Assembly: GCA_964509325.1 (NCBI GenBank)
Contig: CAZDYM010000001.1
Span: 1 to 34,162, forward strand
DNA length: 34,162 nucleotides
Reading direction: 5' to 3'
Source: an uncultured Phycisphaeraceae bacterium
GTDB lineage: Bacteria; Planctomycetota; Phycisphaerae; Phycisphaerales; UBA1924
Each line of letters begins with the position of its first letter. Within the stretch, counting starts at the first letter, position 1. The position numbers and the translations under genes were made by a program. Of this stretch, positions 8,672 through 10,177 are shown one piece after another. Below the pieces are notes generated by a model. The model was not told the origin of the DNA. It did not search any database and saw only the letters and a list, made by a program, of their open reading frames with translations.

Positions 8672-10177
8672 ATGAGCATGACCATCAACAGCGGTCGAAG
8701 CACGATGAACACCGGTGCCGGCGTTTGGTCGGCGGTCCCTGCGGCGGTTCCGAATCCGCGGCCCTTGGCTCCGACCTCGGCAGCGAACTCCGGCGGCGTG
8801 GTTGACGCCCGCGCGGGGGGTGGGGCGGTGGACCGCGTGACGGCGCTGTTCCGCCAACAGTTCGCTGATTGGGCGAAGGACCCCGCGAAGTTCAAGGCCA
8901 TGATGTCCCGCGTGTTCGGCCCGAACCATGACACGGCCCAGGCCGAGAGCCTGCGCCAGCGGGCCCTGAACGGGGACTTCTCGTGGATGCCCAAAGTCCG
9001 CTTCGTCTCTAATGCAGCGTTGAACGGAGCCGAAGCGGGCTACGACAATGCCTCAAAGACGGTTCTGATGAATGAAGATTTGCTGCGCGACCCCGCAAAG
9101 GCCGCGAGCGTGTTCGTGGAAGAGGCCGGGCATCATCTCGACAACCTCTTGAACACCGTCGACAGCAAGGGCGACGAAGGCGAGTTGTTCCGGCGCATCA
9201 TCGGCAGCGAGCATGTTTCAGCGGAGGAAGAGGCGCGCATCCGGTCGTTCCAGGACCTCGGCACCGCCGTGGTGGACGGAAAGACGGTGCAGGTGGAGAA
9301 CTTCTTCGGGAAGTTGAAGAAAGCCTTCAAGAAGATCGGTGGCGCGTTCAAGAAGGGCTTCACAAAGCTCGGCGGCGCGATGAAGAAGATCGGTGGGGCG
9401 ATCAAGAAGGGTTTGCGCAAGATCGGGAAGTTCATCGGCCCGGTGCTGAAACTGTTCAACAGGATCGCCCCGTTCCTGTCGGTGGCGGCGCTGGCGATTC
9501 CCGGCATCGGGCCGGTGATCGCCGGGGTGATGAAGATCGCGACCCCGATCGCCGCTGCGCTGAACGGAGACTTGAAGGGCGCGCTTGCCGGCCTGGTTCC
9601 CGGCGGGGTTGGCGGGGCGCTGGGCAAGGTTGCTGGCCTGGCGGGCGGGCTGCCGGCCAAGGTGGTGCAGATGGCGCAGCCGTTCCTCGACAAATACAAC
9701 GAGATCAAGACCAAGATCGCCGGCCTGCCGGAGGCGGCCCTGGGCAGACTCGGCGAGATCGGCAAGCCGTTGCTTGACAAGTACCGCGAGCTGACCGGCG
9801 CTGTGAACCAGCCGATCGATGCGGCGCGGGGCGTGATTGGGCAGGCCAGGGTGGCGGGGTTGGAGGCTCTGCCCGTCGGGTTCGACCTCAAGCAAGTGCC
9901 CGGTCTCAGTGCGAAGATTGAGCGGTTGCAGCAACGGCTGGTGGATCAGGTGAACAAGCCCTTCAGCCGGGCCGACGCGGCGCTTCTGGAGGCGAGGGAC
10001 GTAATCAACAGCCTGCCCGAGACGGCCAAGGCTCAGGCCCGCGAGGCGCTCGCCCGGGCCGTCCGGGAAGCGGGTGCCGACGCGCTGGTGGCCGACCCGA
10101 TGACGCGGAACCCGATCCAGCAGCAGCGTGCCGAGGAACTGCTTCGGGGCTTGCTCGGCCTCGCGCCCGCGGCCTGA
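8672..10177 (+). CDS. Candidate T3SS translocator or membrane-active effector, 501 aa
   Basis: ATG at 8672 with GAAGGAGAG upstream; no signal peptide. The N-terminal domain has FVEEAGHHLDNLLNTVDSKGDEGELFRRIIG. Next come Lys-rich amphipathic repeats, a hydrophobic hairpin (IAPFLSVAALAIPGIGPVIAGVMKIATPIAAAL), and a long helical C-terminal region. Confidence 0.6.
   Translation: MSMTINSGRSTMNTGAGVWSAVPAAVPNPRPLAPTSAANSGGVVDARAGGGAVDRVTALFRQQFADWAKDPAKFKAMMSRVFGPNHDTAQAESLRQRALNGDFSWMPKVRFVSNAALNGAEAGYDNASKTVLMNEDLLRDPAKAASVFVEEAGHHLDNLLNTVDSKGDEGELFRRIIGSEHVSAEEEARIRSFQDLGTAVVDGKTVQVENFFGKLKKAFKKIGGAFKKGFTKLGGAMKKIGGAIKKGLRKIGKFIGPVLKLFNRIAPFLSVAALAIPGIGPVIAGVMKIATPIAAALNGDLKGALAGLVPGGVGGALGKVAGLAGGLPAKVVQMAQPFLDKYNEIKTKIAGLPEAALGRLGEIGKPLLDKYRELTGAVNQPIDAARGVIGQARVAGLEALPVGFDLKQVPGLSAKIERLQQRLVDQVNKPFSRADAALLEARDVINSLPETAKAQAREALARAVREAGADALVADPMTRNPIQQQRAEELLRGLLGLAPAA
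9311..9439 (+). repeat. Tandem cationic amphipathic coding repeats (about 11 aa: KKxFKKIGGAx)
   Basis: Translation: KLKKAFKKIGGAF KKGFTKLGGAM KKIGGAIKKGL RKIGKFIG. The DNA shows recurring aagaag...atcggtgg/ctcggcgg units. Confidence 0.75.

Follow-up and report, generated by a model that had tools for sequence, protein, structure and literature searches.

What is the role of a protein that joins a peptidase-like head to a strongly cationic helix and a hydrophobic hairpin, and that is encoded beside the export gate of a system for type III secretion (T3SS)? This question is raised by a stretch of 34,162 nucleotides from an uncultured Phycisphaeraceae bacterium (GenBank assembly GCA_964509325.1, contig CAZDYM010000001.1, positions 1 to 34,162 of the forward strand), referred to here as the window, in which a gene 5' of sctV encodes a protein of 501 residues. 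An earlier note, made from the letters of the sequence, had proposed that this protein is an unusual translocator in which antimicrobial-peptide-like repeats are followed by a hydrophobic hairpin. The explanation that we favor, and to which we give about an even chance, is that the protein is exported by the T3SS to bind to and insert into a target membrane, and that it follows the plan of PVC-type toxins, with a zincin-like head, an amphipathic linker and a payload consisting of the hairpin and a glycine zipper. Plausibly, it would represent a novel type of secretion substrate that inserts into membranes, and not an aberrant YopB or IpaB.

The predicted parts of the protein

The gene and the N-terminal part of its product, as modeled with AlphaFold2 (AF2), comprise the following features:

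8672..10177, + strand: whole gene for the 501-residue protein (P0001), stop codon included, with an AAGGAG ribosome-binding site 8 nt 5' of the ATG
8672..8818, + strand: residues 1-49, disordered N-terminus rich in Ser, Thr, Asn, Pro and Ala, starting MSMTINSGRSTMNTG (AF2 pLDDT <50)
8819..9307, + strand: residues 50-212, conserved N-domain, alpha/beta and zincin-like in its fold (AF2 pLDDT 93.8, pTM 0.89)
9119..9142, + strand: EEAGHHLD motif, aligned on the HExxH of a related metallopeptidase domain, but with Glu in place of its first His (E150, E151, G153 and D157 invariant, H154 nearly so)
9170..9184, + strand: invariant acidic GDEGE motif downstream of the metal-site helix, from the alignment

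The open reading frame (ORF) has a GC3 of 0.85. Sec, Tat and lipoprotein signals are all absent from the N-terminus of its product. Residues 1-49 would serve as a T3SS export signal, and homologs begin in a similar manner (MSLTIS.., MSLSLNTN.. and MRIDSG..).

Residues 50-212, which the earlier note overlooked, appear to be a divergent and remote relative of the fold shared by DUF4157, the PVC-metallopeptidases and the C-terminal domain of VgrG2b, with Glu in place of the first zinc-binding His. Each line of evidence for this relationship is modest, and all of them agree. A Foldseek search with the full-length model returned noise from the low-confidence helices, mostly phycobiliproteins, and was rerun with the N-domain by itself; the best matches in the PDB were then all zincin peptidases (selecase, jannalysin, SPRTN, BlaR1, LTA4H and AsaP1; all E≥0.1), and those among viral models were SprT-like, IrrE/M78, M48 and lethal-factor proteins (best E 0.011, probability 0.91). 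The Pfam family DUF6782 ("putative metallopeptidase"), for which a full-text literature search found no paper, was matched by two homologs only (~1e-6), and the N-domain gave no match to Pfam PF13699. When a profile of 144 N-domains was compared in hhalign with a profile of the HExxH domains found at the C-terminus of other family members (Prob 88%, E 3e-6), the EEAGH of the former was set on the HEMAH of the latter. That C-terminal domain, carried by the relatives designated class B, in turn matches the solved effector domain of VgrG2b (PDB 6H56) with an E of 8.6e-14. An intact HExxH is not present in the N-domain of the window protein, which has EEAGH in its place, and nearly all family members have EExxH; G167, D168, E169 and G170 are invariant in the family. 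One homolog (P0029), the sole case among the inspected sequences, has a canonical HEVGH at the site of residues 150-154, which suggests that the head descended from an active zincin.

Behind the head lie the segments to which the earlier note had drawn attention:

9299..9457, + strand: residues 210-262, cationic amphipathic helix of 53 residues by hydrophobic moment, a family-wide feature
9311-9439, + strand: residues 214-256, Lys-rich repeat of 11- and 7-residue units by Tandem Repeats Finder and Lys/Arg autocorrelation
9443..9562, + strand: residues 258-297, a pair of moderately hydrophobic segments on either side of IPGIGP, a putative helical hairpin by hydropathy
9566..9649, + strand: residues 299-326, glycine zipper of seven overlapping GxxxG by motif count, conserved in the ortholog P0002
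9662..10174, + strand: residues 331-501, predicted all-helical C-terminal region, low-confidence model, common only to the ortholog P0002

Nucleotides 9311-9562 correspond to codons 214-297, and their translation is identical to the peptide quoted in the earlier note. The four tandem units of ~11 residues that had been read into this peptide stand as a repeat but not as four clean 11-mers. Tandem Repeats Finder detected a period of 33 nt at 9313-9388 (2.3 copies, 79% matches) and one of 21 nt at 9365-9409 (2.1 copies, 83%), and in the protein segment the Lys/Arg autocorrelation has lags of 7, 11 and 18, so that 11- and 7-residue units are mixed. Residues 214-256 contain 15 Lys and Arg, 10 Gly and neither Asp nor Glu. 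The hydrophobic-moment analysis proposed in the earlier note bore out its strongly cationic amphipathic helix: residues 210-262 have a mean-centered moment of 0.61, its sharp maximum being at 100 degrees per residue, compared with 0.21 +/- 0.07 in shuffled sequences, and none of 5000 shuffles equaled the observed value. By this measure the segment behaves as a single coherent amphipathic helix, far beyond chance, with a net charge of +15, no acidic residues and one hydrophobic face.

The two-segment hairpin of the earlier note is supported by two Kyte-Doolittle peaks of 1.6-2.0 in residues 258-297 that are parted by IPGIGP; the AF2 model has low confidence there. The hairpin is kept in five homologs (P0002, P0004, P0024, P0047 and P0065). 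Directly after it comes a glycine zipper that had gone unmentioned, with GxxxG motifs starting at residues 299, 303, 307, 311, 314, 318 and 322. The best 19-mer of the protein scores +3.8 kcal/mol in a simple Hessa sum, versus -2 to 0 for the transmembrane helices of SctV. Krampen et al. reported that the transmembrane segments of T3SS transmembrane substrates lie just under the threshold for inner-membrane targeting (PMC6110835), and the predicted moderate hydrophobicity of the hairpin supports a likeness to such substrates.

These values bear on one alternative, namely that the protein is not secreted but resides in the inner membrane as an accessory to the export apparatus, anchored by its hairpin beside SctV with the N-domain in the cytoplasm or periplasm. 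Adjacency to sctV in several phyla and the two-segment hairpin itself are as this alternative would have it. We consider it highly unlikely, however, as the hairpin is rich in Pro and Gly and far less hydrophobic than the SctV helices, a surface-seeking helix of 53 residues and charge +15 is unexpected in a resident subunit, relatives of the protein carry toxin domains, and we know of no such subunit in known injectisomes.

Family, genomic context and proposed role

By its conserved domain at residues 50-212, the protein belongs to another modular family, one of very large size. A word-indexed protein search found 21 relatives, and an exhaustive HMMER search found at least 2,585 representative clusters at E≤1e-3 (1,138 at E≤1e-10). 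The proteins range from 145 to 2616 residues and match the query only from residue ~50 to residue ~210-330; residues 205-501, searched alone, matched only the query itself. Judged by sequence, the family is large, modular and undescribed, and the window protein is not related to known translocators. Directly after a junction of the form ..VDGK.V.VE(F/Y)(W/G/F)..F, a periodic segment of Gly, Lys, Ala and Val follows the head (131 representatives with a locatable domain end). Since an amphipathic repeat stands behind the head in almost all members, the Gly/Lys repeat is, at the level of sequence, a hallmark of the family, a rule and not an add-on. The junction, between VE and (F/Y)(W/G/F)..F, is a candidate processing site only. 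The net charge of the first 60 residues after the domain ranges from +25 to -11, and the window protein is in the top ~8%. Payloads include hydrophobic hairpins, a VgrG2b-like peptidase and an alpha/beta hydrolase; among 146 representatives, 49 are of the transmembrane type, 52 of the HExxH type and 45 of other types. The median charge of the repeat is +7 in members with hydrophobic payloads versus +0.5 in HExxH members (Mann-Whitney p = 3.5e-5).

Only one true ortholog was found (P0002, 43% identity over 99% of the length). It retains the hairpin and glycine zipper nearly unchanged (ITPFLSIASWAIPGLGPVVAGVMKFVGPI...), and an 18-residue deletion has left it with ~2 units of the repeat and a charge of +6. 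Lack of conservation of the repeat in orthologs, which the earlier note had named as a finding that would count against it, is thus partly borne out by P0002.

Variation in repeat number between the orthologs is also what might be expected if the protein were a ruler, that is, a functional analog of SctP that is extended and helical, sits inside the needle, sets its length and is expelled first. Residues 170-400 match about eight tape-measure families of PHROG (best E ~1e-6), and profiles match solved tape-measure proteins in the PDB. The strongest PDB match of the class-A profile, 23wo ("DP221"), is presumably a designed helical protein, to go by its name and its repetitive helical sequence. 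Homology to tape-measure proteins was rejected: the reversed sequence matches tape-measure families as well as the native one does (E 8e-7), whereas three shuffles match none, so the likeness is one of periodic pattern and not demonstrable homology. An effector with DUF4157, a tape-measure-like region and a transmembrane part does exist in a Streptomyces contractile injection system (PMC11126660). No SctP was recognized in the window, but the window holds only part of the T3SS cluster and SctP may lie elsewhere; moreover, the Pfam scan found no C-terminal domain of the T3S4/FliK type in the protein. We regard a ruler as highly unlikely.

The genomic context was sampled in 40 loci from species-representative genomes together with the window and the locus of the ortholog, and a copy was counted as linked to secretion when tblastn detected sctV, sctJ, sctN or sctU in the fetched flanks within 10 kb. 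Eight loci are linked (the window, L001, L004, L008, L028, L033, L034 and L036), and these are spread over Planctomycetota, Gammaproteobacteria and the lineage of the window itself. Context and payload were distributed as follows:

Secretion genes in the flank: 8 copies without a C-terminal HExxH domain, 1 with it (L032)
No secretion genes in the flank, complete gene: 4 copies without a C-terminal HExxH domain, 21 with it

All eight linked copies that lack the HExxH domain also have hydrophobic segments, and the domain is present in 21 of the 25 unlinked complete copies. L032 has sctT/U-like or fliR/flhB-like genes at a distance of 4-6 kb; the association of context with payload has a Fisher p of 2e-4 with L032 taken as linked and 3e-5 with L032 taken as unlinked. 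In the syntenic locus of P0002, one strand carries sctN, sctL, sctJ, sctI and others; the opposite strand has a 345-aa gene and then a DUF1521 gene, the target and sctV. The order common to the window and the Planctomycetota loci L028 and L008 is a needle-like gene, the target-like gene, sctV, a lipoprotein gene, a needle-like gene, a 128-aa gene, sctI and sctJ. The closest sctV (L047, 50% identity) has in the slot upstream of it a gene for a hydrophobic protein of 532 residues without the N-domain, and the neighboring gene for a 238-residue protein, an analog of the window's 221-aa ORF, encodes a glycine zipper and a Lys/Gly amphipathic repeat like that of the target. Homology between the C-terminal half of the window protein and the same-slot protein of L047 was considered and set aside as marginal only (E ~0.02).

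It could be argued that adjacency to the T3SS is incidental and that the protein leaves the cell in some other way (through a contractile injection system, on lysis or along a further pathway), as the non-linked relatives would. About 30 of the roughly 40 loci have no secretion gene within 10 kb, and the head is related to a domain that marks contractile injection systems (PMC8213781). Against this stand eight independent linked loci in three phyla with conserved gene order, the significant association of context with payload type, and the lack of contractile-system genes near the one class-B locus that was scanned (L007); chance adjacency is accordingly very improbable. For the class-B copies themselves, a link to contractile injection systems was suggested by a sheath-like "YPGVY" start in a neighboring ORF, but a Pfam scan of 10 ORFs of L007 found no sheath, tube or baseplate domain. 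The class-B copies of Corallococcus, Myxococcus and relatives (L010-L013, L016, L024, L025 and L045) have a VgrG2b-like metallopeptidase at the C-terminus and are followed by a gene for a lipoprotein of 135-136 residues, which looks like an immunity gene. The Corallococcus and Myxococcus copies stand alone and are not near T3SS genes, and the arrangement with the lipoprotein is typical of toxin-immunity pairs in these predators.

How might the protein act? In the mechanism that we favor, the disordered N-terminal ~50 residues would be the export signal, and the protein would pass through the needle unfolded. Outside the cell, the 53-residue helix would, from physical chemistry, lie flat on an anionic bilayer in the manner of cecropin-type peptides and lipid binders with 11-residue repeats. 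Such docking would bring the Gly-Pro hinge, the Pro/Gly-kinked hairpin (258-297) and the glycine zipper (299-326) to the membrane, where these segments would insert and probably oligomerize into a pore or an anchor. The role of the head is more speculative: the degenerate zincin may be a pseudo-peptidase used for docking or trafficking, or alternatively a metal-triggered self-processing domain that cuts the junction behind it and frees the membrane-active part.

A different role for the same parts is that of a pore-forming or membrane-depolarizing effector toxin, in which the N-domain and repeat would be a delivery module and the hairpin and glycine zipper a non-enzymatic toxin, by analogy with W-TIP. 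This is possible, though on balance doubtful. The family consists of a conserved head with variable payloads that include the VgrG2b-like peptidase and the alpha/beta hydrolase, the C-terminal halves of the linked copies differ from each other, relatives of the window's C-terminal half other than the one ortholog were not detected, and pore-forming payloads behind PVC-metallopeptidases have been described (PMC3482391). Against it, the target and sctV have no ORF between them in the window, L001, L008 or L028, and no immunity-like gene was seen with the linked copies, whereas the Corallococcus and Myxococcus class-B copies have their small lipoprotein. In addition, copies in different phyla, with Planctomycetota and Gammaproteobacteria among them, keep a fixed place beside sctV, and the presence of hydrophobic segments in eight of eight linked copies suggests a required rather than an optional part. 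Because of these three features, we lean slightly, from the sequences and their contexts, toward a translocon-like role for the membrane-inserting protein rather than an effector role.

The proposal of the earlier note that the protein is an unusual translocator therefore stands in part. In its favor are the location in a T3SS locus beside sctV, the disordered non-Sec N-terminus and the moderately hydrophobic hairpin, and to our knowledge canonical translocators do not carry such a Lys-rich repeat. Membership in the known translocator families did not stand: neither Pfam nor NCBIfam gave a match to the SseC/YopB/IpaB, YopD, EspB or IpaC/SipC families even at E≤1.

Several further observations weigh against export as a translocon-like, membrane-inserting protein. 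Searches of the PDB with the single sequence and two profiles gave no homology to a known translocator; the chaperone-binding motif P/VxLxxP is absent from the window protein and from six of the seven other secretion-linked homologs; and no class II chaperone is evident in the locus, the sole TPR gene being in the needle-operon position. Given these results and the lack of a family match, the protein is, on sequence criteria, not a member of SctE or SctB, while functionally it would still resemble them. In addition, the export signal is deduced from composition only, residues 212-501 are modeled with low confidence (pLDDT <50), and in L046 the DUF1521 gene is followed directly by sctV with no target-like gene between them. 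The regions after the N-domain, compared by eye, differ markedly among the secretion-linked proteins and so have the look of a variable payload more than of a conserved component of the machine. The majority of family members do not adjoin secretion genes, and the linked sample is small, with eight loci defined by tblastn within 10 kb.

A broader and rather unlikely proposal is that the degenerate-zincin head and amphipathic repeat are a module for delivery through T3SS needles that defines a polymorphic-toxin superfamily of environmental T3SSs. The hydrophobic copies beside sctV would then be self-inserting translocons that replace SctE and SctB, and the unlinked Myxococcota copies, with a VgrG2b-like antibacterial peptidase and a lipoprotein, would be the long-sought effectors of prey-lysing "needleless" T3SSs.

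In environmental T3SSs, of which the one here is of the Planctomycetota type, we know of no recognized translocators or effectors. For predatory Myxococcus, a T3SS-like system has been described that is without secretin, needle and translocon; the same paper speaks of "potential" T3SS effectors only and identifies none (PMC12075869). The window protein is a concrete candidate for how environmental T3SSs reach a target membrane, as it would join a cationic docking helix, a hairpin and a glycine zipper to a head otherwise known from toxins of contractile injection systems. If it is exported by the T3SS, the logic of a releasing-peptidase head with a variable payload has been adopted by a second, unrelated injection machine, and a family of at least 2,585 uncharacterized protein clusters gains a function that can be tested. 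For assays of membrane activity, the 53-residue helix offers a peptide ready for use.

The surrounding secretion locus

Upstream of the target, the minus strand carries sctJ, sctI and the genes for a TPR protein, a needle-like poly-Gly protein and a lipoprotein of ~470 residues. The neighboring features of the window are:

2525..3013, - strand: TPR gene between the needle-like gene and sctI (needle-operon position), the only TPR gene in the locus
3068..3412, - strand: 114-aa protein with a needle/rod-like C-terminus (..FQTLSNISKTEHDTRVNSIRNMRG) and a long internal poly-Gly stretch GGGGLGGFGALGGLGGGGF, no Pfam match
3791..5206, - strand: lipoprotein of ~470 residues with lipobox ..SSLGC, no Pfam match
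5451..6578, + strand: Gly-rich harpin-like protein starting MSFISNIVNRSIGNVVGNVVGNVVGN, without a hydrophobic segment, no Pfam match
6839..7789, + strand: DUF1521 protein (Pfam E 6.5e-12) with a GDPH motif at 7022 and a weakly needle-like C-terminus (..ISNMLKQESDDRLAVVRNLRTN)
7939..8604, + strand: 221-aa ORF with a Gly/Ala-rich, hydrophobic, glycine-zipper-type C-terminus and a coding-like GC3 of 0.86
10414..12546, + strand: sctV, export-gate subunit, 236 nt 3' of the target (Pfam FHIPEP E 2.7e-192; TIGR01399)
12550..17677, - strand: regulatory block 3' of sctV with a sigma-70-family factor, an FHA protein, a Ser/Thr kinase and an FHA-GAF-PP2C phosphatase
17788..20652, + strand: ShlB/FhaC-like transporter of a two-partner secretion (TPS) pair (E 2.3e-6)
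20700..34160, + strand: giant open frame of >4,487 codons that runs off the window end, with an N-terminal TPS secretion domain (E 1.4e-21)

The nearest SctV proteins, from metagenome-assembled genomes of Planctomycetota and Phycisphaerales, are at most 50% identical to that of the window, so by sequence the system is probably a divergent environmental T3SS. A secretin was not seen in the window; L047 and L034 have one. The gene usually found upstream of sctV encodes the gatekeeper SctW, and this identity was rejected for the target, as the Pfam scan gave no HrpJ or TyeA match. Seven neighboring ORFs have similar starts rich in Ser, Thr, Asn and Ile (MSMTINSG, MSFISNIV, MTTYVSNN, MSGPSVIN, MTINPLRP, MNSIAPIN and MSAIPNSS), which would give the region the look of a block of T3SS substrates.

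The DUF1521 domain is known from the self-cleaving T3SS effectors NopE1 and NopE2. The C-terminus of the DUF1521 protein in the window resembles a needle subunit weakly (T3SS_needle_F in Pfam, E 0.17; TIGR02105, E 0.12) and has no PDB match. Its orthologs adjoin sctV or the target in L001, L046 and L047, and the equivalent in L028, from Planctomycetota, is a C-terminal part of 157 residues only (BLASTP E 3e-9). The protein may be a self-processing subunit of the needle, tip or filament. A further secreted substrate may be the Gly-rich protein at 5451..6578, to which the product of a syntenic L001 gene is 47% identical; the 221-aa ORF is missing from that orthologous locus. The 114-aa needle-like gene is conserved next to sctV in L001, L008, L028 and L047, and the counterpart of the TPR gene in L047 has a weak HrpB1_HrpK match. 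The ~470-aa lipoprotein is conserved beside sctV in L001, L004, L008, L028 and L025 and may be an outer-membrane or periplasmic component of this type of T3SS. On the other side of sctV, the pair of sigma factor and FHA protein also occurs next to sctV in L004 and L046, and the remainder of the giant TPS protein gave no Pfam match.

Comparison with known systems

Like the hydrophobic translocators of T3SSs (SctE: YopB, IpaB, EspD and SseC; SctB: YopD, IpaC and EspB), the window protein is encoded in a T3SS locus, has a disordered, signal-like N-terminus and a two-segment central hydrophobic region with helical flanks, and is not accompanied by an immunity gene. Only the window protein has the zincin-like N-domain, the +15 amphipathic repeat and the glycine zipper.

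The long cationic amphipathic helix is also a feature of alpha-helical antimicrobial peptides of the cecropin and magainin type, and cecropins have a Gly-Pro hinge followed by a hydrophobic helix, an arrangement like that of the window protein. These are processed peptides of 20-40 residues, whereas the window helix is an internal segment of a 501-residue protein with no homology to them. The ortholog P0002 gave a weak match to Styelin (E 0.08). The periodicity of 7 and 11 residues is also present in lipid-binding helices with 11-residue repeats, such as those of apolipoproteins and alpha-synuclein, and the tandem GxxxG motifs predicted to lie in a hydrophobic or amphipathic helix recall membrane pore formers of the glycine-zipper type. 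Phage tail tape-measure proteins, with their central Gly-rich and hydrophobic region, have the same periodic helical texture of Gly, Ala, Lys and Ile with hydrophobic helices, but the context of tail genes is missing at the window protein.

The plan of the whole protein appears to be that of polymorphic toxins of the PVC or extracellular contractile injection system (eCIS) type, headed by the PVC-metallopeptidase (DUF4157, Pfam "eCIS_core"), in which the order is zincin-fold N-domain, long helical linker containing hydrophobic helices, and variable payload. This architecture has already been described (PMC3482391, PMC8213781, PMC11126660). According to Zhang et al., the PVC-metallopeptidase is a releasing peptidase at the N-terminus of toxins delivered by PVCs; they described both a second copy of it as a C-terminal toxin and W-TIP, a pore-forming payload of two helices (PMC3482391). 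Members of the window family likewise have a second copy of the peptidase at the C-terminus. Geller et al. reported eCIS toxins with long linkers that begin with DUF4157, and they assigned it no role (PMC8213781). The effector Tme of the Streptomyces contractile injection system combines DUF4157 with a tape-measure-like region, transmembrane helices and a nuclease, and tape-measure proteins and Tme are thought to leave through the tube and insert into a membrane (PMC11126660). The window family differs from these toxins in having EExxH for HExxH in nearly all members and an amphipathic Gly/Lys repeat as a fixed feature right behind the head, and the context of the window protein is a T3SS instead of a contractile injection system. 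The C-terminal metallopeptidase of Pseudomonas aeruginosa VgrG2b (6H56) appears to be a remote relative of the window N-domain; the window protein, however, has no such domain at its own C-terminus, lacks the first zinc-binding His and is not fused to a spike of the type VI secretion system.

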